A stretch of DNA of 64,000 nucleotides from Balanoglossus misakiensis (lineage: Eukaryota; Animalia; Hemichordata), in assembly GCA_040954595.2 (NCBI GenBank), contig CM082591.2, forward strand, positions 1,587,745 through 1,651,744, in the 5' to 3' direction. Below the pieces are notes generated by a model. It saw only the letters and a list, made by a program, of their open reading frames with translations. It did not search any database and was not told the DNA's origin. A program made the translations under genes and the position numbers. Of the stretch, positions 4,539-64,000 are shown piece after piece. Within the stretch, counting starts at the first letter, position 1. Each line of letters begins with the position of its first letter.

Positions 4539-5350
4539 CTACTTGTGGAATACTTTGATTTGGTCGCTTTTATACTCTCTAACAGCAATTCTGTCACCGC
4601 TGACTGCAAGGAACTGAGGGCCTCTCACCTCACCTTCAAATAAGTGACAGATCCACTCTCCATCAAATCTCCATTTCACAATCCTATCATTCCCATTATC
4701 ACACACAAACAAATTATCGTCGTCATCGACGTCAATGCAGACTGGATACACCAGCTGACCAGGACCTGAACCTTTCACACCAAATTGATACAAGAATTTC
4801 AATTCAGCATCAAAACACTTGATGCAGTGATTGAGACAGTCAGACACCATGATGACATTCTTACTGTTGACCACCACAGAGTATGGGGAACGGAATTGTG
4901 TTTGGCCACCACCTTCACCACCAACCTCTGCAACATACTGACCATCTTGGGTGTACTTGAGTAGCCGATCACCTTTGACCTCAGTGACCAAAACAAATCC
5001 ATTCAGTAGAGCGATGCCCCAAGCATTGACGCCTGCAGGTAGAGTAATTATTCTAAGAATTTTATTGTTTTGATCACAAACAACAATTTGAGAATTTCCA
5101 TCATCACTTATGAAGTAGATGTTGTCATGGGAGACAGCTACATCCCATGGCTGGAATGGCTTTGCAAACTGACCATCAAAACTTCCCAAGACTTTGTCAC
5201 AGGTGTAATCTTGATTCAGTATCTGTACAACCTTGTTGCCTTTGTCACACACCACCAGTTTGTCACCATGGAACACCATACCTCTCGGTTCTTTAAACTT
5301 TCGTCCTGGCTTTGGACTTTGGCCATCCAGTGTCCTCATTGACCAGTGAC
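4539..5350 (-). CDS. Terminal exon of paralog 1: six-bladed NHL-repeat beta-propeller (TRIM2/3/71-like C-terminus)
   Basis: Repeated F/L-x-x-P-x-G/D/S-hydrophobic...V-x-D-x-x-N-x-R/C-I motifs, e.g. FKEPRGM, FRSPYSV...VSDCLNHCI, GSGPGQLVYPVCI...VCDNGNDRI. Acceptor cacctaacag|GT CAC. Confidence 0.92.
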
Positions 5351-8300
5351 CTGTTAGGTGAAACAGAGGTCAAAGGTCAAACATGCTGTATTGAAATGCA
5401 TTAGGAATATGCTAGAGTTAGTGTTTTATTGTTCATTTTAATAAGAGAAAACATATTACAAAAGAAACAAATCATTGCTATGACAACTGAACTACTAAGA
5501 GGTAGTTTTTCTACAAAATGTTTACAGTGACAAATCACCATGGCAACCATAGTAACCATGAGTTTCTTGAACTATTTCTTTTTCTCTGCAATATAGCTAG
5601 GAGGAAATTTACTTTGTCTCTTGTTGACAGCTTTGCTATAATATACATGAAAGACCATCTTATTTAACCATTCAATAGATATACTATCATTGATGTTGCC
5701 ATGGTAACACATTCAATGAAATCAGTTCAAAAATAATCTTTTACTTGTAACTTTTGACTCGGTAGACATTTCATAACAATTCTTGAACTGATGAGTTTCA
5801 GGGATATGGTCCATTGTTTTCATGAAAAAAACGTATGATGGTAGCATTGTACACTGGTAACCATGACAACTGAACCTCAATATCTTTTGTAAAACATTGG
5901 CAATGTGCTAAAGTTAGTGTTTTAATTTAACTTAAACCTTTTTTTTTTTACAAATTTAGCGAGTTATTGCCATGATATATTTGTGCCAACGTACTCTATA
6001 TGTACACATTTTCCAATACCAAGTAACCATGGAAACTGGACAAAACGTTAATATCAGTTACTAATTCTATTTTTTATAACAAGTAACAGAAATATTACCT
6101 GAAATTATCACTTTATTTATGGTCTTTGTAACCCATAAAAATTTGTTCCTATTCAACTGCTCAATGGATTTAGTGACAGTATTGTTGTCATGGTAACACA
6201 TCTTAACAGATCAGTACAGGAATAATCTTTGCCTTGTAATTTTGGAATTAGTAGGTCTTACATAAAAATTCTTGAACAATGTATTAAGGATCATTGCCTA
6301 CCTTATACTTGTAGCTTTTCAGTGCCAAGAAACCAGGGCAACACCAATTTCTGAAACTATTCCTATTGCTTTGCAATATAAAGAAAATATTTCTAACTAT
6401 ATGTACTATCAGTAATGTTGTTGTGATATAGGTTTTGTTTCTTTTTCCAGCCAACCAGATATGGTCTGCTTTTAAATCAGTAATTGTCATATTGGTGAAC
6501 AGAGAAAAATTATCTACTCCTTAGCTGAGAGGGCTTGTACTTTCTTTGACCAGGTGAGTATTTTTGTGAATAAACCCTTGAGAAAATTATTGGTGTAAAC
6601 CTTTCTAACTTTAGAGAATTTACTGGAAAGTAAAATGCATGGTTGGAAATTTAGTGATATATTTTTTTGCAAGAATAAACCCTAACCACTTATATAGTGA
6701 CATCATTTCAGATGATCTGAGAGATGGAAAACCTGCAGTTACCTAGGATGAGTCATGATAAATAGTCTGTTTCAACACCACTGGCTGTTCCAGATTGTCA
6801 CTTGGATAAAAAATTGGTAAGTTCGTAATTTGAATTACCTTTTTTGATTATTTATAATCATTACAAAATTAAAGTTTCTTGATATTGTGGAATATCTACA
6901 TTTGACAATTCCAAAGTCAAATGAAGAAATTGAATTATAGAAATTGAGCATTTTCACCCTGGACCAGAGTTGTTGTATTTCTGGCCACTGTTACAAAGAG
7001 TGAACCTTTCACCCCTTTCTGTTGCATATGGATTCAACCATACCAGTCAAAACAAAGGGTTGAACCACTGTTCTATTTTATATTGCTTTATGCTGTCTGT
7101 ATCTGCAAATAATCAGCCTACTTGTACATTGGATATTTACACACAAATTGGGTCACAACTTTTTCTTTTTTCCATTCTGGCACACCTTGATGCTCCATCA
7201 AATGCTCTGGCAGAATTGATCATAACAACCTAATCCACATGATATTGATATTGAGTAAATATCTGCACGCATTTTGATGTTTTTATTTTACAGACAAAAG
7301 TATTCATCAATCACCAGACAGCCAATCTATTCTTGCAAAGAATTATTGAATTCAAAGATGACAAGGTTGGTATCTTCTGACGTTACTTTGTTTATGTTTG
7401 ATCAAGTGAAAAGTTACTTGCAATAATTCTGAACTCTCTGAATTGTTGGTGACCAGACCTCTATTCTCATCTTGCCTCATACTTGTAAACATTTGCGTTG
7501 TGATGTCAAGGTTTCTGGTAAGTGCCATAAATGTTTTGTCTTCAAGTTTTGTTATATTATACATTTACACACAATGCAGTTTGGTAGTACCGGTAGAAGT
7601 CTGGCAACCAATGATTCAACATTTACTTGAAGTTTTGAATCAACTGGTCCCTGGTTAGTATCAACACATGAGAAGTAATGCACATACCTGTTTTAGAAGA
7701 TTTTGCTGAAACACTGGCTCCCTTTGTATCCTCAGATATCTCTTTACTTCCTGTAGTGGAGAGATGACTTAGACATTAGTTTTACTTGAAGTTTTGAATC
7801 AACTGGTTCCTTATTATCAACACATGTATTCAACTGTTATTTTCCAACACTGAGATGAAATGTGCATACCTGTTTTAGAAGGTTCTGTTGAAATACTGGC
7901 TCCCTTTGTATCCTCAGATATCTCTTTACTTCCTGTAGTGGAGAGATGACTTAGACATTAATTTTACTTGAAGTTTTGAATCAACTGGTCCCTTATTATC
8001 AACACATGTATTCAACTGTTATTTTCCAACACTGAGATGAAATGTGCATACCTGTTTTAGAAGGTTCTGTTGAAATACTGGCTCCCTTTGTATCCTCAGA
8101 TATCTCTTTACTTCCTGCAGTGGAGAGATAACTTAGACATTAATTTTACTTGAAGTTTTGAATCAATTTGCCCCTTTAGTAGTATCAGCATACTGATATG
8201 TACTTAACTGTTGTTTTCCAACACTGAGATGTAATGGACATACCTGATAAATCTGTTTTAGAAGATTCTGCTGAAACACTGGCTCCCTTTGTATCCTCAG

Positions 8301-11300
8301 ATATCTCTTGACTACCTGTAGTCTCAGTTCCATCGACTCCTTCCGTCATCACAGCCTCAGTGTCTTCTTTTCCCATTGTCTCCGGTTGTGGATGTCTGGC
8401 TTTCTCAGCTCCTGTTTCTTCTGATGCCATCTCAGGTTGCATTGATGCTGGTTTCACAGACTCATCTTCATCTTTTGTAGCCATGGTTACAGGTGATATG
8501 TCTCCTGTGTCATCTTTCTTGAGAGGCACATCAGATGGTGTGAGTTTGCCTACAAATATTTGAAATTAAATGTTAAGTACCTGGTTAATTCTTACAACAA
8601 TGAAAACTTGCATTTTTTTATAATCTATGTGAGCTGGAAGATTTTATTTGACCAAGGGTTTCTTGATGCAGGAATAATCGAAGCAGATTTATATCAATCT
8701 CACCTTGTTCTATTTCCAACTTTGCATCTTCTTCCAGTTGAAGAGTTATAGCAGTTTTCAGTTGCAGCTCTGCAGTGTCAGATTGCTCATCCTGAATTTT
8801 GGATAATTTTGACATTAGCTCAGTTATGGTTTGTTCTTGTTGTTCAAGTTTAGATTCCAACTTTTGGATGTGTCTAGGGTCTAATTCTTCCAATCTTTGC
8901 TTGAGGGAAATGACATCCATAAGTTGTGTGAAAGCTACTTTTTCAGTTTTTTCAAGTTTCTGAACACAATCTTTGTACTGCTTTTCTAAGAGGGACTTTT
9001 CCTGAATTGCTTCTTTCAACTGATTCTCTAGAATTGTTTTCTCTGTCTGCAGTTTAGTGTTTTCTCCAACTAGCTTTCTCTTATTCTCAACTGACTCAGT
9101 CTGCAGTTTAGTGATTTCTCCAACTAGCTTTCTCTTATTCTCAACTGACTCAGTCTGAATTTTGGACTTCTCTGTCAGGGCCCCATCCAACTGTTGTTTT
9201 AGTTCTTTGAGCTGCTTTGCACTAGCTTCAAAGGGCAGTAAGCTTTTTGCTTGTAAGCTGATAGATTCAGCTGGTATGGGATCAATTGGTCTGCCATGTT
9301 GTATGATTTCTTCTTCTAACTCTGAAATGGAGAATGTAGATAAATATGTCATTGATATCAAGTAACCTCGGACATGTATTAAGTTCCATAATTATCACAC
9401 ATAGAGAATGATATTGCATAACTATTAATAAAGTTTTATTCATGTTGCACAGTGCATAGCTGTGTATGTTCCTATTTATTTTTTGTTACAAAGTGCAGCA
9501 AACATACTTCCCTTTGTAAAGCAAATGTGCTGTTTGCATCATATTTGCGAATTACCTGATTCACTGAAATCCAATCTTTCTGTGTCAGTCATAAGATACC
9601 TTCTAACACCCAGTAACTCAAAGACTTGAGGTCTGTGAGATAGGATATGCTGAACTTTCTCGGTCATTTTCACTGTAAGTTGTATGATGTCACACTGTCT
9701 TCCTTTCTGTCTTTTACACTGCTCACTGTTGAGTATCAGAGGTGCATATTTGTCAGCTGACTTCTGAATTTCTTGTGTCGGATCAATCTCAAGGAACAAC
9801 AACCTGGATAATATCCCACCTGCAAAATACAAACAAAAGCAGATTTTTAGTCTTGGCACATCAATCTTTCAAACATGAAATCCAACTGGTGATACAGAAA
9901 GAACAGATGGTATACTGTGCAATGTATGGTAGAATGTTAATGTTGGCTGACAATTGTTTCTTCCATCATTACAAGTTAACAATCCTAATTTATTTTAAGG
10001 AGATATCAATTTTTATGGCCACAACAAAATCCTTCCTACATGTACATTGTTCATGTGGTAAAAAAAGAGTATTGTGTAAGTGCAACGCCAAGTCAAATGT
10101 GTATCGTCAAGGAAAATTTGGATATACAAAATGTATGTGAACACATTTTATGCCAGTATTTTTCGAATCTTTGAATATTTATGAAGCCTAAATGTGCATT
10201 TTGTTGTCATTGACTGAAATGATGGTAAAATCACTCACTTTGTATCAGGCCAGTGTGTTCAGTATCAGAATCTTTTTCTGTTAACTCCCGTTGCAAAGTC
10301 AGGTGTGTTCTGTCAATCTGAAATTGGAAGAAATGAACACTTTTATTATTTGACAACTATATATAAAAAACATGACCACATGATATAATACCCATCACTC
10401 AAATACCACACAGTCGATCACCAGATTCGCAACAGGTCAACCAGTATTGACCTGTGCAGCTGATATTGCTCTTGAAGACAATTATGCAAGAGCAGCTTGG
10501 CTTGCAATTGATCAGGTGTGGCACTTTAAGGGTTAAAGTTACAAAGCATACCTCGGCCAGTATCTCATTGACATATTCCTCATCAACGCTGTCATCACAT
10601 ACCACTGGTCCTATTCCTCCACCATCTCCTGAAAGATAATAATACAATAATATATTTACATATTAGTAGATATGTTAACCATTAAATCTTTATCAAATCA
10701 AGTTCTGCTGTTTAATAATTCTATCATCTATGATTTCAGAGTAATGTGTGTCTCTTTGGAGAGCATTTAACCCATCAAGTGCTGTTCTTAACAATCGATT
10801 CATAGTAAATTGTCCTGAATTGTATTTTTTTTCTGGTTTGATAGTCTGAGAGTTTTATAGCATTATCTGATAAACAAAACTTACTGTTCAAAAAGTATAG
10901 TTCCAGTTCATCAAACCTGGCTTGGTCATATGAAGCTATCAACTGTAGTGGAATTCCAGCTGTGTTGGCCTCTGTCATTTCATCTGTCATCAAGATTGGT
11001 TCTAATGCCTTGGCTAAACTTCTTGAATCTTCAAGACAGCTTCCCCGCAATCTGTAGAGATTATAAAGTCTACGCATGTTGGCTGTGATTTGCAGAGACC
11101 CTGTTTCCATACTGGTTATGTCCACTTCACCCAAATTCTCAGTGCAGACTTTATTGACTTTCTCAGTGTCATCACTGTTGGATACCACATCAGATGCTCT
11201 TCTCTTCAACTGTTGTTGGCAGTTGTTCCAAGCTGTAGATGCTGCCTGTTGCCTTTCCTCATTCTGGCCCTCATTTTCTGCTCGATGTTGCTGATAGGCA

Positions 11301-14196
11301 TTTTCATCCAGTTGGACGTGGATTGCAATTTTTGTGTCAGCTGAAGATAGGAGAAAGAACGTGCTTTAGCTCTTGAAATCAACACTGTATGTTTTGTAGG
11401 ATTTTGCTGCTTTAGTACTTACTCCCAACCACTCCACTCGATTTTACTAATATCTGTAGTCACTTAAAATTAATTACTTTAGAAATGAACAGGTTTGTAA
11501 ATGGTGATTTGCAGATAATGAGAAATTGTAGGCACAACAGAACTCAGTTTACTTTTTAGAAATAAGATGGTATCTCAGTGATGCATGCAATTGTCAGTGC
11601 AGGTTTCACTATTTGACCAAATTTACTCTTGTAGTTGAAAAATAAAGCAACAATTACCAGTATGTATCATTAACTAGACACAGGATATAATTTACTAAAA
11701 GTGTACACTGTACATACCTGTTACATTTTGTCTGTCCTTTGAAGTCAACAAACTGGTGAATTTGGCGTAACACTTGTTGACATCTTCACACTCCATGAAA
11801 GCCTTCTTCAGCTCCTTAGCTTCTTCAAAAGCTAACCTGGTCTTCTGGACACTCCATATTATCTTCTCTGAAATCTTATCAGATGAGTGTGACACTACAC
11901 ATTTGTCTGCGTGGTATGGAAAGTATTTCTTGACTAACTTTCCAAGCTGGGAATATTCATCAGGATAGGTTGGTAGTCCAACTGCTATAGATTCTAAACC
12001 GCTATATGGATAGTCCTTGTAGACAGAGACAGGAAGACAACTGTGAGATTGATGCACTGATATCATTAAGGTCTTTTCTGAGTAATCTGGGTGAGGATAT
12101 GCCATTACATGATTGCTGTTCATCTGCTGTAGAATATGCTTCAGTTCAGCCTCACCTGCTCCCCGTATTGACCAATTCAGAAGTTTGTTGTGAAAGTCTT
12201 TCACCGTGTTTGCTGCACTTCCAATAGCAGCTGCTATTGTCTCACATCTGTCCAAGGCTTCTTGTGTATCAATCTGCCCGTATGTCAGTATGCTGTGAGT
12301 AGTCATTCCATCTAGGAACGTTGGGTCTTTTCTGAAAAAGACTTCAGCAGGTCTGGGAAAAATCTCTTCATGAGGGATCATGTGTAGTTCCCTGCCATCA
12401 AAGGTAGCCCGGTATTCGTTCTGGAAATGCTCATACATGCTTGGACCAATTGAAAATATGATATCAGCTTTACTGGCCAGCTTCAGCATCATTTCACTTA
12501 ACTTTCCTTTTGGTTGTTTCAACCGACAGTTGCGTTCTTCATAGGCATGGTTGATCATCACTAGTTCTGCATCAGGAAACAATTTTTTTCTGATATTTGC
12601 AGCAGCGAATCCAGTCCTCGGAGCATAACCAACAACATACTTGATGTTTTGTAGCTGTCTGAGGTGAGGGTAGTAGATTTCATGATTCATCAACCACTTA
12701 AGTTCTGGCTTGTCTTCCTCTGGTTCAACCCCTTCCCTTTTTTGTGCTGGAATCAATGTAACCCGACACTTGGCAGCATCTGCCTTCTGATCATCACTGA
12801 CTTTGACACCAACCAGAGTGGAGTAAGCTCTTCCTTCTTTGGTTTTCCTTTTACAGAAATCTTGTACAAGAATTCTGTGAAACCCAGTCAAGCCACAATC
12901 TTCTTTGTTCCATTCATTATACACAAACAGTGCCCCAGGAGGTGGTTCAGGAAGATGGGGTTGATGAAGTTTGGCTTCAGGGAAGAGACTTTCATGGATT
13001 GCTTTGGCTGCATTGTTTGTCTTTGGAGAATATCCGACTACATGTTGGATGTTTTTCAGTTTCTTCAGTCCTGGGAAGTAGACCCAATGGTTGAAGAGCC
13101 AGTGTTCTCCAGGTGGGTCTTTCTTTGGATCCAACCACTTGTTTCTTTTCGCTGGGATCAAAGTAGCATCAAAACTTTCTGCATCTTTCTTTTGTTCTTC
13201 ACTCACTTTAACTTCAAGGGTAGTACAGTGGAGTTCAGAAACTTTATCAGACTTAATCTTTTCACGGAACTCATTGACAAGCATATGACTTGGTTTTGTA
13301 ATCTTCCCTTCTGAGGTTGTGTCCCAGGTTGGTAGTAGCAGTAACGCTGCAGCTGGTGGTTCAGGAAGTGAGAGTTGGTGAAGTTTGGCTTCAGGGAAGA
13401 GACTTTTATGAATTGCCACTGCAGCATTTTTTGTGTTTGGAGAGATTCCCACTACATGCTTGATGTTTAGCAGTCCCTTCAAGTCTGGGAAGTATGTACC
13501 ATGGTTAACAAGCCAGTGTATTCCAGGGGGGTCTTCAAGAGGATCCATCCTCTCGTCTCTTATAGCTGGGATCAAAGTAACATCAAATTTCTCTCCATCT
13601 TTCCTTTGTTCTTCACTCACAACAACATCAAGTGTAGTACAGTAGGATTGAGAAACTTTCTCTGACTTCAGGGTTTCTTCTCTAAATTTTGTGACAAGCT
13701 GGTGAGTTGGTGTTGTTGTCTGATCTTCTGATTCTGTCTGCCATGTTTGCATGACCATTAATGCTGCCACAGGTGGTGGGTCAGGAAGACTGAGTTGATG
13801 AAGTTTGGCTTCTGGGAAGAGACTTTCATGAATTGCTTTGGCTGCATTGTGTGTCTGTGGAGAATATCCGACAACATGTTGGATGTTTTTCAGGTCCTTC
13901 AGGTCTGGGTAGTAGACCAAATGGTTGAAGAACCAGTGATCTCCAGGTGGATCTTTCTTTGGATCCAACCACTTGTTTCTTTTGGCTGGAATCAAAGTGA
14001 CATTCACACTCTTTGCATCTTTCTTTTGTTCTTCACTCACTTCAACTTCAAGGGTAGTACAGTGGAGTTCAGTAACGTTCTCAGACTGGAGTGTGTTTTC
14101 TTGGAGATGTTTGATTATAGCTTGAGTTGGTTGGGAGGTCTTTGCCTTCTTGTCCCATGATTTCAATAAAACCAGTGCTGCAGATGGTTCGGACAT
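4539..14196 (-). CDS. Paralog 1: GT N-lobe repeats x3 + GT4-like + TRADD-N-like + coiled coil + NHL propeller protein, 1759 aa as spliced
   Basis: Exons (-): 14196-11718, 11340-10885, 10628-10552, 10317-10239, 9819-9556, 9321-8704, 8549-8244, 8114-8052, 7932-7870, 7750-7688, 5350-4539. All are GT-AG and phase-compatible, total 5280 nt, with no internal stop seen. The ATG (MSEPSAA) lies 10 nt after an acceptor at 14206. Confidence 0.8.
5400..6290. repeat. Degenerate ~490-bp two-copy tandem repeat rich in GTTGCCATGG(T/C)AAC-type motifs; also in units 2 and 3
   Basis: aatatgctagagttagtgtttt (~5407) vs aatgtgctaaagttagtgtttt (~5902); gttgccatggtaacacattc (5695) vs gttgtcatggtaacacatct (6184). 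Confidence 0.65.
6451..7365 (+). pseudogene. Antisense three-exon gene relic in the last intron (6451-6553, 6712-6816, 7294-7365; unit 2: 20199-20301, 20460-20564, 21071-21146)
   Basis: Plus-strand acceptors and donors (ttttccag|...cag|gtgagt; tttcag|...ttg|gtaagt; ttttacag|...aag|gttggt) join in phase 0. The frame carries stops; product not recognised. Confidence 0.45.
7620..8310 (-). repeat. 182-bp tandem exon+intron repeat carrying three 63-nt exons (GSKEISEDTKGAS(I/V)S(T/A)(E/K)(P/S)SKT)
   Basis: Exons 8114-8052, 7932-7870 and 7750-7688 are spaced exactly 182 bp apart. Each is bounded by ...cag| and |gtatg and is phase 1-1. Confidence 0.88.
8704..9321 (-). CDS. Coiled-coil exon of paralog 1
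   Basis: Heptad-like E/K/Q/L-rich sequence (LKELKQQLDGALTEKSKIQ...LESKLEQQEQTITELMSKLSKIQ) with an internal 54-nt tandem duplication. Confidence 0.8.
10885..11340 (-). CDS. TRADD-N-like domain exon of paralog 1
   Basis: ITSMETGSLQITANMRRLYNLYRLRGSC...SLAKALEPILMTDEM...LQLIASYDQARFDELELYF fits the pattern I-x-x-h-x-x-GSL-x-h...L-x-x-L-x-x-L...L-x-x-x-L-x-x-h-L-h-T that I recognise from invertebrate TRADD-N-like domains. Confidence 0.6.
11718..12933 (-). CDS. GT-B fold, family-4-like glycosyltransferase domain with degenerate catalytic motifs, paralog 1
   Basis: LFVYNEW...GLTGFHR (N-terminal strand and glycine loop), VVGYA, LVMINH, ADIIFSIGP, ILTYG, and GLESIAVGLP (cf. the GT4 motif EGFGLxxLEAxxxGxP). 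Confidence 0.72.
12934..14181 (-). repeat. Three in-frame ~417-bp (~139 aa) repeats homologous to the N-terminal lobe of the adjacent GT domain
   Basis: Each repeat has AAL-hhh-x-x-W...CTTL-x-V-x-VSEEQ-x-KD...TLIPA...DPPG-x-HW...NH...YxPxL...NI-x-HVVG-x-SP-x-T...AA-x-AIH-x-SLFPEAKL. This aligns with STLVGVKVSDDQKADA...TLIPA...WLMNH...YYPHL...NIKYVVGYAPRT...LFPDAEL in the GT domain. Confidence 0.9.
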
Positions 14197-15099
14197 AATT
14201 GCATTCCTGCTTGGAAGAAACATATTGTACCCTGGTATAGTTAATGAGAAGTTGACCAGTGATTGTGGTGATGATGTGATCATGTTTCATTTGTATCGAG
14301 AATGGACAAAATCAATGCAGTTGATTCAGTGGATGTAGGGTATACTGGTATGTGATGTGACACTGTATTAAAGACAGCTCCCTAAAGGTCAAATGAGGTC
14401 ACTGTCTGTGTAAAACCAGACCACAACATGTACAATTAAATATTAACCTTACTCTGCATGATAGTATCATGTCTACGTATTGATTGATAGAAAAGTTAGA
14501 GCTTAATAATCGTGATTGGCAAAAACAGATTGTCTCAATCTTACAGTTGTTGACAGAATTTCAAAGTAGAGTTAAAGTAGAATTTTATTTAGATAAAATT
14601 CGCTCTGTGATACCAACAAATAATTTGAAGGCATTGACTTTGAGGGGTAGACGACTGTTGAAATGATCACTTCTGTCATAATAAAACACTCTACCAACTT
14701 AGGTCTGTAAAAAAGTGGACAATTTTCTCACAAGACATGGCTTTGTTTCCAGGAATCCTACATTTATAAATGCACAATCTCCACAAATTGTCATGAAAGT
14801 TAGTGCTCACGAGGCAAAATCACGTCTTTGATCGAGTTTGGTTCTAGGCTTACATGAGTACTGCATGTGATTTTCATGTGATACCTGTTGTTGTACCTGT
14901 TACATATTGACACAGGACACTATCACCAGTTTGCTGTTTGTGATATCTCCAAAAGTGCATACATGTACTTAATATTTTGTATAACCTATAGTGTACCGCG
15001 TTGGTGAAAATAATTGTCCCTAGTTTTGATATTGATGAATCACAGACAATGTTCAGACCCATTAATTCAAATCATGAAAAGTGTAGTGACTTATTTTTT

Positions 15100-21200: not shown

Positions 21201-24200
21201 ATAATCATTTTGAACTCTCTGAATTGTTGGTGACCAGACCTCTATTCTCATCTTGCCTCATACTTGTAAAAATTTGCATTGTGATGTCAAGGTTTCTGGT
21301 AAGTGCCATAAATGTTATGTCATCAAGTTTTCTTATATTATACATTTACACACAATGCAGTTTGGTTGTACCGGTAGAAGTCTAGCAACCAATGATTCAA
21401 CATTTACTTGAAGTTTTGAATCAACTGGTTCCTTATTATCAACACATGTATTCAACTGTTATTTTCCAACACTGAGATGAAATGCACATACCTGTTTTAG
21501 AAGGTTCTGCTGAAACACTGGTTCCCTTTGTATCCTCAGATATCTCTTTACTTCCTGTAGTGGAGAGATGACTTAGACATTAATTTTACTTGAAGTTTTG
21601 AATCAACTGATCCCTTAGTATCAACACTTGTATTCAACTGTTGTTTTCCAACACTGAGATGAAATGCACATACCTGTTTTAGAAGGTTCTGCTGAAACAC
21701 TGGTTCCCTTTGTATCCTCAGATATCACTTTACTTCCTGTAGTGGAGAGATGACTTAGACATTAATTTTACTTGAAGTTTTGAATCAACTGATCCCTTAG
21801 TATCAACACTTGTATTCAACTGTTATTTTCCAACACTGAGATGAAATGCACATACCTGTTTTAGAAGGTTCTGTTGAAATACTGGCTCCCTTTGTATCCT
21901 CAGATATCTCTTTACTTCCTGTAATGTAGAGATGACATAGACATTAATTTTACTTGGAGTTTTGAATCAACTGATCCCTTAGTATCAACACTTGTATTCA
22001 ACTTATTTTCCAACACTGAGATGAAATGCACATACCTGTTATAGAAGGTTCTGCTGAAACACTGGCTCCCTTTGTATCCTCAGATATCTCTTTACTTCCT
22101 GTAGTCCCTGAATCACCAGCAGTTTCTTTACTTCCACCAAAAAATCTCCTAATCTTGCTGATGACACCTTTGGATTTCTTTTCTTCTGCAAAAGAAAGTG
22201 ATCAAACAATGAAAATATAGTGCTGTACACATTTGGCCAACATCTGACTGATGTTTCCCTATCAAGAATACTAGTAAACTACCGGTATACCATGCTTTCC
22301 AACATCAGATTGAATGTACGGTTAATGTAGTTCATACTTTCTATAGCATCCCATTACCACTCTCCACGTTTTATTGGTGTACCTTTTTCTTTTGTCTTAA
22401 CTTGTTTTGATTTGGTTTGCTCAGTCTCAGTTCCATCTCCTTCCGTCATCTCGGCCACAGTCTCAGTGTCTTCTTTTCCCATTGTCTCCGGTTGTGGATG
22501 TCTGGCTTTCTCAGCTCCTGTTTCTTCTGATGCCATCTCAGGTTGCACAGCTGCTGGTTTCACAGGCTCATCTTCATCTTTTGTAGCTATGGTTACAGGT
22601 GATATGTCTCCTGTGTCATCTTTCTTGAGAGGCACATCAGATGGTGTGAGTTTGCCTACAAATATTTGAAATTAAATGTTAAGTACAGAAGTTGGTTAAT
22701 TCTTACAACAATGAAAACTTGCATTTTTTTATAATCTATGTGAGCTGGAAGATTTTATTTGACCAAGGGTTTCTTGATGCAGGAATAATCGAAGCAGATT
22801 TATATCAATCTCACCTTGTTCAGTTTCCAATTTTGCATCTTCTTCCAGTTCAAGAGTTTTAGCAGTTTTCAGTTGCAGCTCTGCAGTGTCAGATTGCTCA
22901 TCCTGAATTTTGGATAATTTTGACTTTAGTTCAGTTATGGTTTGTTCTTGTTGTTCAAGTTTAGATTCCAACTCTTGGATGTGTCTAGGGTCTGAGTCTT
23001 TCAATCTTTGCTTCAGGGAAATGACATCCATAAGTTGTGTTTTGGCTACTTTCTCACCACTTGCAAGTTTCTTTTTGTACTGCTCTTCTAAGAGTGACTT
23101 TTCCTGAAGTGCTTCTTTCAACTGATTCTCTAGAATCATTTTCTCTGTCTGCAGTTTAGTGATTTCTTGAACAACCTTCCTCTTATTCTCAACTGACTCA
23201 GTCTGAATTTTGGACTTCTCTGTCAGGGCCCTATCCAACTGTTGTTTTAGTTCTTTGAGCTGCTTTGCACTAGCTTCAAAGGGCAGTAAGCTTTTTGCTT
23301 GTAAGCTGATAGATTCAGCTGGTATGGGATCAATTGGTCTGCCATGTTGTATGATTTCTTCTTCTAACTCTGAAATGGAGAATGTAGATAAATATGTCAT
23401 TGATATCAAGTAACCTCGGACATGTATTAAGTTCCATAATTATCACACATAGAGAATGATATTGCATAACTATTAATAAGTTTTATTCATGTTGCACAGT
23501 GCATAGCTGTGTATGTTCCTATTTATTTTTTGTTACAAAGTGCAGCAAACATACTTCCCTTTGTAAAGCAAATGTGCTGTTTGCATCATATTTGTGAATT
23601 ACCTGATTCACTGAAATCCAATCTTTCTGTGTCAGTCATAAGATACCTTCTAACACCCAATAACTCAAAGACTTGAGGTCTGTGAGATAGGATATGCTGA
23701 ACTTTCTCTGTCATTTTCACTTTAAGTTGTATGATGTCACACTGTCTTCCTTTCTGTCTTTTACACTGCTCACTGTTGAGTATCAGAGGTGCATATTTGT
23801 CAGCTGACTTCTGGATTTCTTGTGTCGGATCAATCTCAAGGAACAACAACCTGGATAATATCTCACCTGCAAAATACAAACAAAATCAGGTTTTTAGTCT
23901 TGGCACAAGTGACATCAGTCTTTCAAGCATCAAATCAAACAGATGATGCAGAAAGAACAAATGGTATACTGTGCAATGTATGGTAGAATGTTAATGTTGG
24001 CTGACAATTGTTTCTTCCATCATTACAAGTTAACAATCCTAATTTATTTTAAGGAGATATCAATTTTTATGGCCACAGCAAAAACCTTCCTACATGTACA
24101 TTGTTCATGTGGTAAAAAAGTCAGAGTATATTGTGTAAGTGCAACGCCAAGTCAAATGTGTATTGTCAAGGAAAATTTGGATATATGCCACTATTTTTCG

Positions 24201-27200
24201 AATCTTTGAATATTTATGAAGCCTAAATGTGCATTTTGTTGTCATTGACTGAAATGATGGTAAAATCACTCACTTTGTTTCAGGCCAGTGTGTTCAGTAT
24301 CAGAATCTTTTTCTGTTAACTCCTGTTGCAAATTCAGGTGTGTTCTGTCAATCTGAAATTGGAAGAAATGAACACGTAGTCTTTATTATTCGACAACTAT
24401 AAAAAACATGGAAACTGTTGAAATGCACATCCCAGAAATACTATTTTGACCACATGATATAATAGCCATCACTCAAATACCACACAGTCACCAGATTCTC
24501 AATGGGTCAACCGGTATTGACCTGTGCAGCTGATGTGGCTCTTGAAGACAATTATGCAAGAACAGCTTGGCTTGCAATTGATCAGGTGTGGCACTTTAAG
24601 GGTTAAAATTACAAAGCATACCTCGTCCAGTATGTCATTGACATATTCATCGTCTACACTGTCGTCACATACCACTGGTTCTATTCCTCCACCATCTCCT
24701 GAAAGATAACAATACAATAACAAATCAAGTTCTGCTGTTTAATAATTCTATCATCTATGATTTCAGAGTAATGTGTGTCTCTTTGGAGAGCATTTAACCC
24801 ATAAAGTGCTGTTCTTAACAATCGATTCATAGTAAATTGTCCTGAATTGTATTTTTTTTTCTGGTTTGATAGTCTGAGAGTTTTATAGCATTATCTGATA
24901 AACAAAACTTACTGTTCAAAAAGAATAGTTCCAGTTCATCAAACCTGGCTTGGTCATATGAAGCTATCAACTGTAGTGGAATTCCAGCTGTGTTGGCCTC
25001 TGTCATTTCATCTGTCATCAAGATTGGTTCTAATGCCTTGGCTAAACTTCTTGAATCTTCAAGACAGCTTCCCCGCAATCTGTAGAGATTATAAAGTCTA
25101 CGCATGTTGGCTGTGATTTGCAGAGACTCTGATCTCATGCTGGTTATGTCCACTTCACCCAAATTCTCAGTGCAGACTTTCTTGACTTTCTCAGTGTCAT
25201 CACTGTTGGATACCACATCAGATGCTCTTCTCTTCAACTGTTGTTTGCAGTTGTTCCAAGCTGTAGATGCTGCCACTAGTTGCCTTTCCTCATTCTGGCC
25301 CTCATTTTCTGCTCGATGTTGCTGATAGGCAGTTTCATCCAGTTGGACGTGGATTGCGATTTTTGTGTCAGCTGAAGATAGGAGAAAGAACATGATTTAG
25401 CTTGTGAAATCAACACTGTATGTTTTGTAGGATTTAGCTGCTTTAGTACTTACTCCCAACCACTCCACTCGATTTTACTATTATCTGTAGTCACTTACAA
25501 TTAATTACTTTAGAAATGAACAGGTTTGTAAATGGTGATTTGCAGATAATGAGAAATTGTAGGCACAACAGAACTCAGTTTACTTTTTAGAAATAAGATG
25601 GTATCTCAGTGATGCATGCAATTGTCAGTGCAGGTTTCACTAATTTACTCTTGAAGTTGAAAAATAAAGAAACAATTACCAGTATGTATCATTAACTAGA
25701 CACAGGATATAATTTACTAAAAGTGTACACTGTACATACCTGTTACAGTTTGTCTGTCCTTTGGAGTCAACAAACTGGTGAATTTGGCGTAACACTTGTT
25801 GACATCTTCACACTCCATGAGAGCCTTCTTCAGCTCCTTAGCTTCTTCAAAAGCTAACCTGGTGTTCTTGACACTCCATATTATCTTCTCCGAAATCTTA
25901 TCAGATGAGTGTGACACTACAAATCTGTCTGCGTGGTATGGAAAGTATTTCTTGACTAACTTTCCAAGCTGGGAATATTCATCAGGATAGGTTGGTAGTC
26001 CAACTGCTATAGATTCTAAACCGCTATACGGATAGTCCTTGTAGACAGAGACAGGAAGACAACTGTGAGATTGATGCACTGATATCATTAAGGTCTTTTC
26101 TGAGTAATCTGGGTGAGGATATGCCATTACTTGATTGTTGTTCATCTGCTGTAGAATATGCTTCAGTTCAGCCTCACCTGCTCCCCGTATTGACCAATTC
26201 AGAAGTTTGTTGTGAAAGTCTTTCACCGTGTTTGCTGCACTTCCAATAGCAGCTGCTATTGTCTCACATCTGTCCAAGGCTTCTTGTGTATCAATCTGCC
26301 CGTATGTCAGTATGCTGTGAGTAGTCATTCCATCTAGGAACGTTGGGTCTTTTCTGAAAAAGACTTCAGCAGGTCTGGGAAAAATCTCTTCATGAGGGAT
26401 CATGTGTAGTTCCCTGCCATCAAAGGTAGCCCGGTATTCGTTCTGGAAATGCTCATACATGCTTGGACCAATTGAAAATATGATATCAGCTTCACTGGCC
26501 AGCTTCAGCATCATTTCACTTAACTTTCCTTTTGGTTGTTTCAACCGACAGTTGCGTTCTTCATAGGCATGGTTGATCATCACTAGTTCTGCATCAGGAA
26601 ACACTTTTTTTCTGATATCTATAGCAGCGGATCCGGTCTTTGGAGCATAACCAACAACATACTTGATGTTTTGTAGCTGTCTGAGGTGAGGGTAGTAGAT
26701 TTCATGATTCATCAACCACTTAAGTTCTGGCTTGTCTTCCTCTGGTTCAACCCCTTCCCTTTTTTGTGCTGGAATCAATGTAACCCGACACTTGGCAGCA
26801 TCTGCCTTCTGGTCATCACTGGCTTTGACACCAACAAAGGTGGAGTAGGCTTTAACAGGTGTTTCTTCTTTGACTTTTCTTGCACAGAAATCTTGTACAA
26901 GAGTTCTGTGAAACCCAGTCAAGCCACAATCTTCTTTGTTCCATTCATTATACACAAACAGTGCCCCAGGAGGTGGTTCAGGAAGATGGGGTTGATGAAG
27001 TTTGGCTTCAGGGAAGAGACTTTCATGAATTGCTTTGGCTGCATTGTGTGTCTGTGGAGAATATCCGACTACATGTTGGATGTTTTTCAGTTTCTTCAGT
27101 CCTGGGTAGTAGATTGAGTGACTGACAAGCCAGTGTTCTCCAGGTGGATCTTTCTTTGGATCCAACCACTTGTTTCTTTTGGCTGGGATCAAAGTGACAT

Positions 27201-28227
27201 TCACACTCTTTGCATCTTTCTTTTGTTCTTCACTCACTTCCACTTCAAGGGTAGTACAGAGGAATTCAGAAACATTCTCAGACTTAATCTTTTCACGGAA
27301 CTCATTGACAAGCATATGACTTGGTTTTGTAATCTGCCCTTCTGAGGTTGTGTCCCAGGTTGGTAGTAGAAGTAACGCTGCAGCTGGTGGTTCAGGAAGT
27401 GAGAGTTGGTGAAGTTTGGCTTCAGGGAAGAGACTTTTATGAATTGCCACTGCAGCATTTTTTGTCTTTGGAGAGAATCCGACGACGTGCTTGATGTTTT
27501 GCAGCCCCTTCAGATCTGGGAAGTATGTACCATGGTTAACAAGCCAGTGTACTCCAGGGGGGTCTTCAAGAGGATCCATCCTCTCGTCTCTTATAGCTGG
27601 GATCAAAGTAACATCAAATTTCTCTGCATCTTTCTTTTGTTCTTCACTCACAACAACATCAAGTGTAGTACAATAGGATTGAGAAACTTTCTCTGACTTC
27701 AGGGTTTCTTCTCGAAATTTTGTGACAAGCTGGTGACTTGGTGTTGTTGTCTGATCTTCTGATTCTGTCTGCCATGTTTGCATGACCATTAATGCTGCCA
27801 CAGGTGGTGGATTGGGAAGTTGGAGTTGGTGAAGTTTAGCTTCAGGGAAGAGACTTTCATGAATTGCTTTGGCTGCAGTTTGTGTCTGTGGAGAATATCC
27901 GACAACATGTTGGATGTTTGTCAGTTCCTTCAGTTCTGGAAAGTAGACCAAATGGTTGAAAAGCCAGTGTTCTCCAGGTGGATCTTTTTTTGGATCCAAC
28001 CACTTGTTTCTTGTGGCTGGGATCAAAGTAGCACAAACACTTTCTGCATCTTTCTTTTGTTCTTCACTCACTTCAACTTCAAGGGTAGTACAGAGGAATT
28101 CAGAAACGTTCTCAGACTGGAGTGTGTTTTCTTGGAGATGTTTGATTATAGCTTGAGTTGGTTGGGAGGTCTTTGCCTCCTTGTCCCATGATTTCAATAC
28201 AACCAGTGCTGCAGATGGTTCGGACAT
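18234..28227 (-). CDS. Paralog 2 of the GT/TRADD-N/coiled-coil/NHL protein, 1783 aa as spliced
   Basis: Exons (-): 28227-25740, 25371-24913, 24698-24622, 24352-24274, 23866-23603, 23369-22815, 22655-22383, 22185-22036, 21918-21856, 21736-21674, 21554-21492, 19051-18234. GT-AG, phase-compatible, 5352 nt. Confidence 0.8.
21400..22105 (-). repeat. 182-bp exon+intron tandem repeat of paralog 2 (three 63-nt exons plus the parental exon end)
   Basis: Exons 21918-21856, 21736-21674 and 21554-21492. The same 63 nt form the 3' end of exon 22185-22036. Confidence 0.88.
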
Positions 28228-31200: not shown

Positions 31201-31834
31201 TACAATATATATCAGGCGATTTGCAGGTAAGTTTATAGAATCATTTTGCACACATAAATTGATGAAACGCCTTCATCCTTTCGGATGCAATGGAGATCTG
31301 ATGGGAAATGGACCTCACATCATAACTTTCAGACCCCTCCTTGTCAAAATTCATCAAAAAAACGAGTAAAAATATTCCAAAACGACTCAGATTTGGATTG
31401 TTTATACTCGTTACATGAAGCGACTGTAAACTGAACTATTTTTCTTTCTTTTAAAAATGTCTTTGCAAATTTGAAAAAAGAACCCAATTTTTGATTGTTT
31501 ACATGCCAAGTTGGCGGATTGCATTCAGTTTCAAACAGTCTTGTCTCAAAATCCCTCAAAATAAACTGCAAAAATTACTCAAAACACCGTCAGTTTAGTT
31601 TGCCTCCACTCAGTAGATGTAGCGACTGCACCTACAATTAATTTCTGTTCTGAATTTTACTTCAAAATGTGGAAAATAACTCCAAAAATTGTGAAAGTGA
31701 CATGGGTTCAGTTTGAACTTTGTTGCCATGGCGTGCAATCACCAACAGTCGGAAATTTCTCAACACAGCCTCTAAATTTTCTCCCAAATTTCACTTTTTT
31801 TGATGTCGTGTTGACATGCATTTCATGGTGATGT

Positions 31835-34800
31835 TTATGTCTGCTTGTGGAATACTTTGATTTGGTCGTTGTACTCCTCTCTAACAGCAATTCTGTCACC
31901 GCTGACTGCAAGGAACTGAGGGCCTCTCACCTCACCTTCAAATAAGTGACAGATCCACTTTCCATCAAATCTCCATTTCACAATCCTATCATTCCTCCAA
32001 TCACACACAAACAAATTATCGTCGTCATCGACGTCAATGCTGTGTGGAAACTCCAGCGGACCAGGACATTTACTATACACACCACCAAATTGATACAAGA
32101 ATTTCAAATCAGCATCAAAACACTTGATGCAGTGATTGCCACAGTCAGACACCATGATGACATTCTTACTGTTGACCACCACAGAGTATGGGGAACGGAA
32201 TTGTGTTTTGCCATCACCCCAACCACCAACCTCTGCAACATACTGACCATCTTGGGTGTACTTGAGTAGCCGATGACCTTCGATCTCAGTGACCAAAACA
32301 AATCCATTCAGTAGAGCGATGCCACAGACATCGACGCCTGCAGGTAGAGTAATTATTCTAAGAATTTTATTGTTTTGATCACAAACAACAATTTGAGAAT
32401 TTCCACCATCATTTATGAAGTAGATGTTGTCATGGGAGACAGCTACATCCCGTGGCTTGAATGGCTTTGCAAACTGACCATCAAAACTTCCCAAGACTTT
32501 GTCACAGGTGTAATCTTGATTCAGTATCTGTACAACCCTGTTGCCTTCATCACACACCACCAGTTTGTCACCATGGAACACCATACCTCTTGGGTCTTTA
32601 AACTTTTGTCCTGTTCATTTTAACAAGAGAAAACGTTACAAAAGAAACAAATCATTGCTATGACAACTGAACTACTAAGGGGTAGTTTTTCTACACAATG
32701 TTTACAGTGACAAATAACCATGGCAACCAGAGTAACCATGAGTTTCTTGAACTATTTCTTTTTCTCTGCAATATAGCTAGGAGGAAATTTACTTTGTCTC
32801 TTTTTGACAGCTTTATTATAATATGCATGAAAGACTATCTTATTTAACCATTCAATAGATATACTATTGTTGATGTTGCCATGGCAACACATTAAAGAAA
32901 TCAGTTCAAAAATAATCTTTTACTTGTAACTTTTGACTCGGTAGACATTTCATAACAATTCTTGAACTGAGTTTCGGGGATAATTTCGTTGGTCCATTAT
33001 TTTTAGGAAAAAATGTATGATGGTAGCATTATTCACTGGTAACCATGACAACTGAACCTCAATGTATTTTGTAAAACATTGGAAATGTGCTAAAGTTAGT
33101 GTTTTAATTTAACTTTGAACCTTTTTTTACAAATTTAGCGAGTTATGCCATGATATATTTCTGCCGAAGTACTCTATATGTACTCATTTTTCAATACCAA
33201 GTAACCATGGAAACTGGACAAAATGTTAATATCAGTTAATAATTCTATTTTTGAAAACAAGTAGCAGAAATATTACCTGAAATTATCGCTTTATTCATGC
33301 CTTGTAACCCATAAAAAATGTTTCTATTCAACTGCTCAATGGATTTAGTGACAGTATTGTTGTCATGGTAACACATTTTAACAGATCAGTACAGGAATAA
33401 TCTTTGCCTTGTAATTTTGGAATTAGTAGGTCTTACATAAAAATTCTTGAACAATGTCTCAATGATCATTGCCTACCTTATACTTGTAGCTTTTCAGTGC
33501 CAAGAAACCAGGGCAACCAGACAAACATCAATTTCTGAAACTATTTCTATTGCTTTGCAATATAATGAAAATATTTCTAACTACATGTATATGTACTATC
33601 AGTAATGTTGTTGTGATATAGGTTTTGTTTCTTTTTCAAGCCAAGCAGAGATGGTCTGCTTTAAATCAGTAATTGTCATAGTAACAGTCTTTAAGTCGGA
33701 GTATTGTGTAAGTGCAACGCCAAGTCAAATGTGTATCGTCAAGGAAAATTTGGATATATGTTAACACATTTTATGCCAGTATTTTTCGAATCTTTGAATA
33801 TTTATGAAGCCTAAATGTGCATTTGGTCGTCATTGACTGAAATGATGGTAAAATCACTCACTTTGTTTCAGGCCAGTGTGTTCAGTATCAGAATCTTTTT
33901 CTGTTAACTCCCGTTGCAAAGTCAGGTGTGCTTTGTCAATCTGAAATTGGAAGAAATAAACACTTTTATTATTTGACAACTATATAAAAAACATAACCAC
34001 ATGATATAATACCCATCACTCAAATACCACACAGTCGATCGCCAGATTCTCAATGGGTCAACCGGTATTGACCTGTGCAGCTGATGTGGCTCTTGAAGAC
34101 AATTATGCAAGAGCAGCTTGGCTTGCAATTGATCAGGTGTGCCACTTTAAGGGTTAAAATTACAAAGCATACCTCGGCCAGTATCTCATTGACATATTCC
34201 TCATCAATGCTGTCATCACATACCACTGGTCCTATTCCTCCACCATCTCCTGATAATACAATAATATATTTACATATTAGTAGATATGTTAACCATTAAA
34301 TCTCTATCAAATCAAGTTCTGCTGTTTACTAATTCTATCGTCTATGATTTCAGAGTGATGTGTGTCTCTTTGGAGAGCATTTAACCCATCAAGTGCTGTT
34401 GTAGTAAATTTTTTTCTGGTTTGATCAATACCGGTAGTCTGAGATTAGTATTCTCTGATAAACTAAACTTACTGTTTAGAAAGAGTAGTTCCAGTTCATC
34501 AAACCTGGCTCGGTCATATGTAGATGTCAACTGTAGTGGAATTCCAGCTGTGTTGGCCTCTGTCATTTCATCTGTCATCAAGATTGGTTCTAATGCCTTG
34601 GATAAACTTCTTGAATCTTCAAGACAGCTTCCCCGCAACCTGCAGAGATTATAAACTCTACGCATGTCTGCTGTGATTTGCAGAGACTCTGATTTCATAC
34701 TGGTTATTTCCACTTCACCCAAATTCTCAGTGCAGGCTTTCTTGACTTTCTCAGTGTCATCACTGTTGGATACCACATCAGATGCTCTTCTCTTCAACTG

Positions 34801-37392
34801 TTGTTTGTAGTTGTTCCAAGCTGTAGATGCTGCCTGTTGCCTTTCCTCATTCTGGCCCACATTTTCTGCTAGATGGTGCTGATAGGCATTTTCATTCAGT
34901 CCGACATGGATTGTAATTGTTGTGTCAGCTGAAGATAGGAGAAAGAACATTATTTAGCTTGTAAAAACAACACTGTATGTTTTGTAGGATTAGCTGCTTA
35001 AGTGTAGTATATACTCCCAACCACTAGGCCACCCACATCCCGATTTTACTAATGTCTGTAGTAACTTATAATTAATTACTTTAGAAATGAACAGGTTTTT
35101 AAATGGTCATTTGCAGATAAGAAGAAATTGTAGGCACATTAACAGAACTCAGTTTATTTTTAGAAATAAGATGGTATCTCAGTGATGCATGCATGTCTGT
35201 GCAGGTTTCACTATTTGACCAAATTTAAATTGAAAGTGTAGACAGCCTAGTCTTGAAGTTGAAAACTAAAGAAACAATTACCGGTATGTATCCTTAACTA
35301 GACAATATAATTAACTAAAACTATACATACCTGTTACATTTTGTCTGCCCTTTGGTGTCAACATACTGGCAAATCTCGCATAACTCTTGTTGACATCTTC
35401 ACTCTCCATGAAAGCCTTCTTCAGCTCCTTAGCATGTTCAAAAGCTAACCTGGTGTTCTTGACACTCCATATTATCTTCTCCGAAATCTTATCAGATGAG
35501 TGTGACACTACACATTTGTCTGCGTGGTATGGAAAGTATTTCTTGACTAACTTTCCAAGCTGGGAATATTCATCAGGAAAGGTTGGTAGTCCAACTGCTA
35601 TAGATTCTAAACCGCTATATGGATAGTCCTTGTAGACAGAGACAGGAAGACAACTGTGAGATTGATGCACTGATATCATTAAGGTCTTTTCTGAGTAATC
35701 TGGGTGAGGATAGGCCATTACATGATTGCTATTCATCTGCTGTAGAATATGCTTCAGTTCAGCGTCACCTGCTCCCCGTATTGACCAATTCAGAAGTTTG
35801 TTGTGAAAGTCTTTCACCGTGTCTGCTGCACTTCCAATAGCAGCTGCTATTGTCTCACATCTGTCCAAGGCTTCTTGCGTATCAATCTGCCCGTATGTCA
35901 GTATGCTGTGAGTAGTCACTCCATCTAGGAACGTTGGGTCTTTTCTGAAAAAGACTTCAGCAGGTCTGGGGAAAATCTCTTCATGAGGGATCATGTGTAG
36001 TTCCCTGCCATCAAAGGTAGCCCGGTATTCGTTCTGGAAATGCTCATACATACTTGAACCAATAGAAAATATGATATCAGCTTCACTGGCCAGCTTCAGC
36101 ATCATTTCACTTAACTTTCCTTTTGGTTGTTTCAACAGACAGTTGCATTCTTCATAGGCATGGTTGATCATTACAAGTTCTGCATCAGGAAACAATTTTT
36201 TTCTGATATCTATAGCAGCGGATCCGGTCTTTGGAGCATAACCAACAACATACTTGATGTTTTCTAACTTTCTTAGATCAGGAAAGTAACTTTCATGATT
36301 CAACAACCATTTTACATCTGGCTGATCAGTGATGTCTTTTGGTTGTGCTGGAATCAATTTAACCCGACACTTGGCAGCATCTGCCTTCTGGTCATCACTG
36401 GCTTTGACACCAACAAAGGTGGAGTAGGCTTTAACAGGTGTTTCTTCTTTGACTTTTCTTGCACAGAAATCTTGTACGAGAGTTCTGTGAAACCCAGTCA
36501 AGCCACAATCTTCTTTGTTCCAGTCGTCATACACAAATAATACTCCAGGAGGTGGATCTGGAAGATGGAGTTGATGAAGTTTGGCTTCAGGGAAGAGACT
36601 TTCATGAATTGCTTTGGCTGCATTCTGTGTCTTTGGAGAATATCCGACTACATGTTGGATGTTTTTCAGTTCCTTCAGATCTGGGAAATATGTGTCATGG
36701 TGAACAAGCCAGTTTATTACAGGGGGGTCTTCATGAGGATCCAACCTCTTGTCTCTTACAGCTGAGATCAAAGTAGCACCAGCCTTCTCTGCATCTTTCT
36801 TTTGTTCTTCACTCACTTCAACTTCAAGGGTAGTACAGTTGATTTCAGAAACTTCATCTGGCTTTAGTTTTTCTTCTCGAAATTCAGTGACAAGTTTGTG
36901 AGTTGGTGTTGTTGTCTGATCTTCTGATTCTGTCTGCCAGGTTTGCATGACCATTAATGCTGCCACAGGTGGTGGGTCAGGAAGACTGAGTTGGTGAAGT
37001 TTGGCTTCTGGGAAGAGACTTTCATGAATTGCGGCTGCTGCTTTGTGTGTCTGTGGAGAATATCCGACTACATGTTGGATGTTTTTCAGTTCCTTCAGTC
37101 CAGGGAAGTATGTATCATGGTTAACAAGCCAGTTTATTGCAGGGGGGTCTTCATGAGGATCCAACCTCTTGTCTCTTACAGCTGAGATCAAAGTAGCACT
37201 AACACTCTCTGCATCTTTCTTTTGTTCTTCACTCACTTCAACTTCAAGGGTAGTACAGAGGAATTCAGAAACATTCTCAGACTGGAGTGTGTTTTCTTTG
37301 AGATGTTTGATTATAGCTTGAGTTGGTCGGGAGGTCTTTGCCTTCTTGTCCCATGATTTCAATACAACCAGTGCTGCAGATGGTTCTGACAT
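31835..37392 (-). CDS. Paralog 3: shortened form (2 N-lobe repeats + GT + TRADD-N-like + NHL, no coiled coil); 1149 aa if a new acceptor is used, otherwise a young pseudogene
   Basis: Open exons 37392-35331, 34928-34473, 34249-34173, 33940-33862 and 32610-31835. There is a ~3.6-kb deletion at ~33680 and a ~120-bp deletion at ~32613 that removes the original NHL acceptor. Confidence 0.55.
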
Positions 37393-51760: not shown

Positions 51761-51772
51761 AAAAAAATGACC

Positions 51773-63700: not shown

Positions 63701-64000
63701 TTTCGACTTTGCGAACTTTCGAAATTTGGTCATTTTTTGAAAAAATCATGGGTTATAGCTCAGGAAAATCGTCAAAAATCGAGGATTTTTCGACTTTGCG
63801 AACTTTCGAAATTTGGTCATTTTTTGAAAAAATCATGGGTTATAGCTCAGGAAAATCGTCAAAAATCGAGGATTTTTCGACTTTGCGAACTTTCGAAATT
63901 TGGTCATTTTTTGAAAAAATCATGGGTTATAGCTCAGGAAAATCGTCAAAAATCGAGGATTTTTCGACTTTGCGAACTTTCGAAATTTGGTCATTTTTTG
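51773..64000 (+). repeat. 87-bp satellite, forward arm, ~140 near-identical monomers, running off the window end
   Basis: Monomer aaaaaatcatgggttatagctcaggaaaatcgtcaaaaatcgaggatttttcgactttgcgaactttcgaaatttggtcattttttg; the ORF track shows the matching 29-aa periodicity. Confidence 0.98.

Follow-up and report, generated by a model that had tools for sequence, protein, structure and literature searches.

The question raised by this locus is whether a series of unrelated-looking open reading frames in Balanoglossus misakiensis encodes proteins in which a glycosyltransferase-like head and an NHL propeller belong to one polypeptide, and whether such an architecture had already been recorded. The DNA analysed here (the window) is a stretch of 64,000 nucleotides. 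Three head-to-tail units were located on the minus strand at approximately 3224-16922, 16922-30522, and 30522-39883, and the long blocks of these units are 88-93% identical to one another by self-BLAST. The predicted exon paths yield open frames of 1759, 1783, and 1149 amino acids for copies 1, 2, and 3, respectively, with no internal stop, and all 25 introns in the three paths (25/25) are bounded by GT-AG. Copy 2 (18234..28227, minus strand) is assembled from 12 coding exons along the predicted splice path, among them exon A at 25740-28227, exon B at 24913-25371, exon E at 23603-23866, exon F at 22815-23369, and the NHL exon at 18234-19051, all on the same strand.

The splice sites were selected by eye from the open reading frames and from the similarity between copies, and thus the phase match alone is not independent evidence for the chain. 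The exact protein lengths hinge on the spacer exons, which include three skippable phase-1 exons of 63 nucleotides. Since the sites were picked by hand, independent support was drawn from homology with Ptychodera flava. The RefSeq proteins P0001 and P0002 align with copy 1 in a single collinear stretch covering residues 283-1759 with 37-38% identity. The GT4-conflict and NHL domains occur together in 9 of the 12 long P. flava homologues, and every module except the extra lobes is present in Glandiceps protein P0075. Comparison of these protein sequences corroborates a single GT4-to-NHL gene formed by the predicted exons. The original prediction had joined the same reading frames through phase-matched sites into proteins of 1759, 1783, and possibly 1149 residues and had placed the GT and NHL parts in one gene; the lengths were reproduced by the scripted paths, and the single gene is borne out by the collinear P. 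flava proteins and by P0075.

We consider it highly improbable that GT4-TRADD-N and NHL belong to different genes, or that the array consists of decaying duplicates or of wrongly joined haplotypes. In copies 1 and 2 a phase-1 acceptor precedes the NHL exon, which opens with Met in copy 1 and with Val in copy 2 and thus has no common start codon; the RefSeq models of two other acorn worms join GT4 and NHL; and the three head-to-tail units differ structurally, with no stop in any exon. These observations stand against the AATAAA words in the last intron, the lack of a terminal NHL in P0010 and some other relatives, an intron divergence of 2.4-6.9% among the copies, and the damage in copy 3. The latter copy (31835..37392, minus strand; five exons with two extra lobes) would encode 1149 amino acids provided that splicing uses a cryptic acceptor at 32610. 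It is missing domain E, the coiled coil, and the spacer (exons E-H), together with the normal NHL acceptor. At the first deletion junction (33680..33699), identified by self-BLAST and from the sequence, the counterpart of copy 1 positions ~6491-10067 is absent. At the second (32605..32620), the normal NHL acceptor and the first codons are gone and an in-frame AG is left. Read-through of copy 3 depends on this cryptic AG, which was created by the deletion.

The array is flanked by two other genes. The last exons of an importin-7-like gene (373-1743, plus strand) lie tail to tail with it and give a weak PDB match to importin 7 (E 0.0097). A DENN/dDENN-domain gene (42430-47919, plus strand), which we take to be DENND2-like and whose first exon is long and proline-rich, lies head to head with it. 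The long repetitive reading frames at 50532-64000 are due to an 87-bp satellite with 99% matches across 140 copies and an orientation flip at ~51761-51773. A unit of ~170 bp, repeated two to four times and in most cases ending in a splice donor, is found upstream of each copy (15096-15841, 29123-29586, and 38260-39188, minus strand); these repeats are possible alternative first exons or promoters.

The first module is encoded by exon A. The 3' part of this exon in copy 1 (11718..12948, minus strand) specifies a full GT4-conflict domain of the GT-B type (PF20706, E 1.8e-28), and the Pfam matches of PF20706 to copies 1, 2, and 3 have E values of 1.8e-40, 2.1e-43, and 2.3e-39, respectively. The exon A model contains Rossmann-like lobes with a mean pLDDT of 88, and the GT4 model matches BshA, MshA, and PimA in Foldseek with E values of 1e-10 to 8e-10, as expected for a GT-B fold. 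The GT4-like assignment made originally is thus upheld by both family and fold. A PDB sequence search with the GT4 core returned chance matches only. The 5' part of exon A in copy 1 (12949..14196, minus strand) is a 414-bp tandem repeat encoding three extra truncated GT4 N-lobe units of ~139 amino acids each. These units span approximately the first 130 residues of the N-lobe, without its glycine loop and His, and weak GT4-conflict matches appear on units 1 and 3 of copy 1. Three extra lobes are present in copies 1 and 2 and two in copy 3. Among 154 proteins with a lobe unit, a count of three is confined to copies 1 and 2 of the window; most of the P. flava and Glandiceps proteins with GT4 and NHL have one, and two of them have two. 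All of the proteins with tandem extra lobes lie in or adjoin a set with a degenerate GT4 site.

In characterised GT4 enzymes, Arg and Lys coordinate the donor pyrophosphate, and the active site carries an EX7E motif (PMC8760489). The GT4 domain of copy 1 has no donor-binding Arg or Lys and no first Glu, and it retains the His and second Glu. All three copies have Gln at the Arg position and no Lys-Gly. The second Glu of EX7E is kept in the window copies; Lys stands at the first position and is followed directly by Asp, and Pro occupies a position of the donor loop where members outside the clade have Gly. A minimum identity of 28.5% to copy 1 was used to define the degenerate clade of GT4 domains (n=53, with the remaining 98 outside), and three or four isoform rows as well as gapped rows were dropped from the residue counts. 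Within the clade, Arg is found in 2/53, Lys-Gly in 0/53, and the first Glu in 4/53, versus 73/98, 71/98, and 86/98, respectively, outside. All three features together are kept in none of the 53 clade members and in 64 of the 98 others. The two sets are split by one branch with a support of 99 (FastTree), and those members of the degenerate set that were named come from Ptychodera, Glandiceps, and Saccoglossus. Another GT4 group (P0016, P0145, P0162, P0189, and P0193), some with TRADD-N and NHL, is degenerate in a different way and is also without the donor motifs, so the active site may have been lost more than once.

Because the donor-binding Arg, Lys, and first Glu were lost across the clade, its GT4 is likely a pseudo-enzyme, and the enzymatic sense of the term "effector" used for it in the original prediction is doubtful. 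The model of Kaur et al. 2021 treats GT4 as the effector (PMC8195603), and the same receptor might instead carry an active GT4 with a rebuilt donor site, which would attach sugars to host or invader targets upon opening of the TRADD-N domain. The GT-B fold is intact, and the clade retains His in 49/56, the second Glu in 56/56, and, next to the position of the lost Glu, an Asp/Glu in 51/56. The GT4 core is under purifying selection, with dN/dS values of 0.40-0.72 between copies. One Glu of EX7E is expendable in some GT4 enzymes (PMC8760489), and a variant with Asp in this motif is known (PMC9692976). The persistence of these residues, together with the dispensability of one Glu, makes a remodelled active site possible. 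We nevertheless regard an active GT4 as unlikely, given the joint loss across the clade of the first Glu and of the Arg and Lys that hold the donor pyrophosphate, and the Pro in the donor loop of the window copies. The reading as a non-catalytic module is the one carried forward below.

Exon B of copy 1 (10885..11340, minus strand) encodes a predicted TRADD-N-like domain of the DEDD2 type, as assigned by profile-profile comparison and fold. No direct TRADD-N match was obtained for this exon with Pfam. The profile-profile comparison with a TRADD-N set gave a probability of 95.8 and an E value of 7.9e-9 over 84 columns; the target set was seeded separately from a Pfam TRADD-like_N match and includes two proteins labelled TRADDN-DEDD2 by Kaur et al. 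The exon B model has a pLDDT of 95, and TRADD-N is ranked first by Foldseek (E 0.044). Upon re-alignment, TRADD-N structure 1f3v is the top match (Z 7.7, rmsd 3.4, 110 residues aligned; next 6.3), and in a wide fold search TRADD-N (Z 6.0) is tied for first with a protocadherin domain. The fold scores are middling and in agreement, and together with the profile result they argue for a TRADD-N-like domain, which had been proposed earlier and is the top or tied-top match in all three fold rankings. A GS motif in the exon B relatives has Ser in 40/51 rows, including all three copies, and Cys in 9/51; we infer that this Ser is the conserved TRADD-N Ser of Kaur et al. The ESM Atlas leads for exon B (0.89) were unrelated and weak and were not accepted.

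An acidic linker is encoded by exons C and D of copy 1 (10552-10628 and 10239-10317, within 10239..10628, minus strand). Exon E (9556..9819, minus strand) encodes a conserved domain of ~85 amino acids, with 19 relatives found by HMM, that lies between the TRADD-N domain and the coiled coil and was absent from the architecture first proposed. It belongs to no Pfam family. Its identification as a second TRADD-N domain was ruled out by probabilities of 0.1-0.3 against TRADD-N profiles, and an ESM Atlas lead (0.92, DUF3987 on 36% of members, low recognition) was not accepted. Exon F (8704..9321, minus strand) encodes a predicted coiled-coil stalk, as had been anticipated, with a heptad periodicity equalled in 2/100 and 0/100 shuffles (the former for copy 1) and with weak coiled-coil matches in Pfam. 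A 54-bp repeat (9041-9157) extends the copy 1 stalk. The low-complexity spacer of copy 1 is specified by exons G and H1-H3 (7688..8549, minus strand), in which the 63-nucleotide exons are part of a 182-bp exon+intron tandem repeat. With these repeats, at 7662-8322 and 21403-22105, the spacer grows in steps of 21 amino acids.

The terminal exon of copy 1 (4539..5350, minus strand) encodes an NHL propeller (PF01436, E 1.5e-17) with variable predicted top-face loops. The dN/dS values for NHL between copies are 1.70, 2.92, and 2.42, versus 0.46-0.49 for exon A. The corresponding Fisher p values are 0.10, 0.018, and 0.019, so that two of the three pairs, which are not independent of one another, fall below 0.05. 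The dS of the NHL exon is low (0.03-0.04) and may reflect gene conversion. In NHL propellers, ligands are bound on the top face, which is made up of the b-c and d-a loops (PMC4015489, PMC9634614). Among the three copies, 27 of the 48 predicted top-face positions vary versus 19 of the 206 elsewhere, with the top-face positions assigned by repeat motif and set after the alignment was seen. The same positions are also more variable in P. flava (entropy 1.23 versus 0.41). Loops are more variable than cores in any case. The hypervariability originally ascribed to this NHL domain thus agrees with the dN/dS values above 1 and is concentrated on the predicted top-face loops.

The best PDB relatives of the propeller are the NHL domains of TRIM3, TRIM71, and TRIM2, and Brat binds RNA through its top face (PMC4015489). 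A non-immune, TRIM-NHL-like regulator that binds RNA or protein and was expanded by neutral tandem duplication would share these properties. The predicted top face contains 6-8 Lys+Arg and 5-9 Asp+Glu among its 48 positions and is not net basic, which argues against RNA binding of the Brat or LIN-41 type. This face is also the least conserved part of the propeller, and the large lineage-specific expansion with exchanged tails further stands against such a regulator, which we consider quite improbable.

No Pfam match to NACHT/NB-ARC was found in the window proteins. Walker A is absent from copies 1 and 2, and one chance word lies within an NHL loop of copy 3. The absence of a NACHT/NB-ARC switch noted originally therefore holds in both the Pfam and Walker A scans. 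No signal peptide or membrane segment was seen (top 19-residue hydropathy of 1.2-1.9), and RING and B-box domains have no Pfam match in the scanned exons, in models that begin at the lobe repeats.

The head found here is shared with other tails, including NHL, TPR, NB-ARC+TPR, and PARP14-like, and with DED in front. A constant head with variable tails around TRADD-N is a pattern described by Kaur et al. (PMC8195603). Within the degenerate clade (n=51), 44 proteins have a TRADD-N-like domain, 21 of them also have NHL, and 16 also have the stalk. These counts identify an expanded family rather than a single-copy housekeeping gene, the outcome that had been named as fatal to the proposal, and the many P. 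flava and Glandiceps relatives with swapped tails agree with the lineage expansion foreseen in it. Glandiceps P0087 (XP_077990954.1) carries a degenerate GT4+TRADD-N head on a whole PARP14-like protein (RRM, KH, Macro, WWE, and PARP). The Glandiceps proteins P0075, P0078, and P0091 (LOC144440056, 144440070, and 144440077) are all GT4-TRADD-N-NHL with neighbouring locus numbers and with contigs of equal length, and their genes are probably another tandem array.

Of the 59 matches to the NHL module, 12 are to B-box proteins of P. flava and 22 are to proteins with precomputed GT4 and NHL annotations, and nearly all begin at the phase-1 exon boundary used in the window. In a 23-row tree, which carries long-branch warnings and a sample biased to the query, three P. 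flava TRIM-headed NHLs lie on starred branches within the NHLs that carry GT heads in two genera of acorn worms, and the amphioxus NHL falls outside. The stalk is common to the GT4-TRADD-N-TPR protein P0004 and has no match to any TRIM protein in the similarity comparison. The earlier proposal that the RING/B-box of a TRIM-NHL protein was replaced is unsupported because the TRIM-headed NHLs nest inside the GT-headed ones. Judged from these sequences, at least one head swap has happened, and the recent one is more likely to have moved a GT-family NHL onto a TRIM head than a TRIM NHL onto a GT head. The free P. flava NHL tree mixes the heads and suggests more than one swap. The AU test does not reject a single TRIM-headed clade (p-AU 0.145, 36 rows), which means that one swap would suffice and that repeated swapping in P. 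flava is not required.

On balance we lean towards the reading that the window holds three tandem paralogues of an acorn-worm GT4-TRADD-N branch that would act as cytosolic invader sensors with a non-catalytic GT4. In this scheme a foreign ligand would dock on the variable NHL tip, and clustering would be the task of the predicted coiled-coil stalk. The TRADD-N-like domain, which would then open, would stand in for a NACHT as the switch, with GT4 serving as a likely binding or scaffold unit rather than in transfer. In the model of Kaur et al., TRADD-N keeps the flanking domains inactive and is reconfigured on sensing (PMC8195603), which would supply the switch missing from the window proteins. 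The immune role, ligand binding, oligomerisation, TRADD-N switch, and loss of catalysis are all inferred. A more speculative and rather unlikely extension is that these are germline combinatorial receptors, in which a portable, positively selected NHL exon is exchanged among TRIM, Death, and pseudo-GT4 heads, and the dead GT4 with amplified acceptor lobes is a second sensor or an integrated decoy whose targets are glycans, sugar nucleotides, or microbial compounds that inhibit active GT4 effectors.

Little work has been devoted to immunity in hemichordates, and GT4-conflict domains of animals have been taken for enzymatic effectors. In this clade the fold is kept, the donor residues are lost, and the acceptor-lobe part is multiplied, which offers a natural contrast with canonical paralogues that these genomes also encode, such as P. 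flava P0107. Three close paralogues that differ mainly on the predicted top face of the propeller offer a tractable test of ligand specificity and a test of the TRADD-N switch model without NACHT.

The core architecture, originally thought to be undescribed, has a precedent. Kaur et al. 2021 reported GT4 before TRADD-N in cnidarians, cephalochordates, and hemichordates, and their Figure 4-source data 1 lists amphioxus XP_019644604.1 as GT4+TRADDN-DEDD2+beta-propeller and five Branchiostoma proteins as Death+TRADDN-DEDD2+coiled-coil+propeller (PMC8195603). XP_019644604.1 was recovered here as P0146, and its propeller is NHL (Pfam E 2.6e-23). The first-round exon B profile fell short of this protein (E 13), and the iterated profile matches its middle with an E value of 3e-16. 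By these sequence matches the core architecture is already catalogued in the source data of that paper, though not discussed as NHL; the word NHL has no occurrences in its supplements 4 and 6. Supplement 4 may list a closer match, since the comparison covered 60/176 of its GT4 places and 30/201 of its propeller places. The window proteins very probably belong to the GT4-TRADD-N (DEDD2 clade) family of Kaur et al. In the open-access literature no paper was found on the acorn-worm expansion, the degenerate GT4 site, or the lobe repeats. What looks new is the acorn-worm clade with a GT4 lacking the donor residues and one to three extra truncated N-lobes, and, as it appears, the NHL variation on predicted top-face loops and an NHL module common to Ptychodera TRIM ligases.

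Like the window proteins, the GT4+TRADD-N family of Kaur et al. combines GT4-conflict, a TRADD-N-like domain, and a variable C-terminal repeat module with no STAND NTPase; the window clade differs by its one to three truncated N-lobes, by the presence of domain E, and by the greater length of its stalk and spacer. XP_019644604.1 keeps the Lys and first Glu that the window clade lost, and Arg is absent in both. The window NHL does not group with the amphioxus NHL in the tree, subject to the long-branch warning. GT4-headed NLR/STAND receptors contain NACHT/NB-ARC, unlike the window proteins, and P0012 has the same lobe+GT4+TRADD-N head on NB-ARC+TPR. TRIM-NHL proteins (TRIM2/3/71 and Brat) likewise end in an NHL propeller, but the window proteins are without RING and B-box, and the conserved, basic top face of TRIM-NHL contrasts with the variable one seen here. 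The NHL domains of 12 B-box proteins, related to the RING-B-box-NHL expansion of P. flava, are 59-68% identical to that of the window and share its boundary. Further close counterparts are RefSeq database models of Ptychodera and Glandiceps for which no paper was found in the open-access literature: the "uncharacterized" GT4+NHL proteins of P. flava and Glandiceps talaboti (such as XP_070557111.1, XP_070561900.1, and XP_077985438.1) have the same chain and the same degenerate GT4 site.
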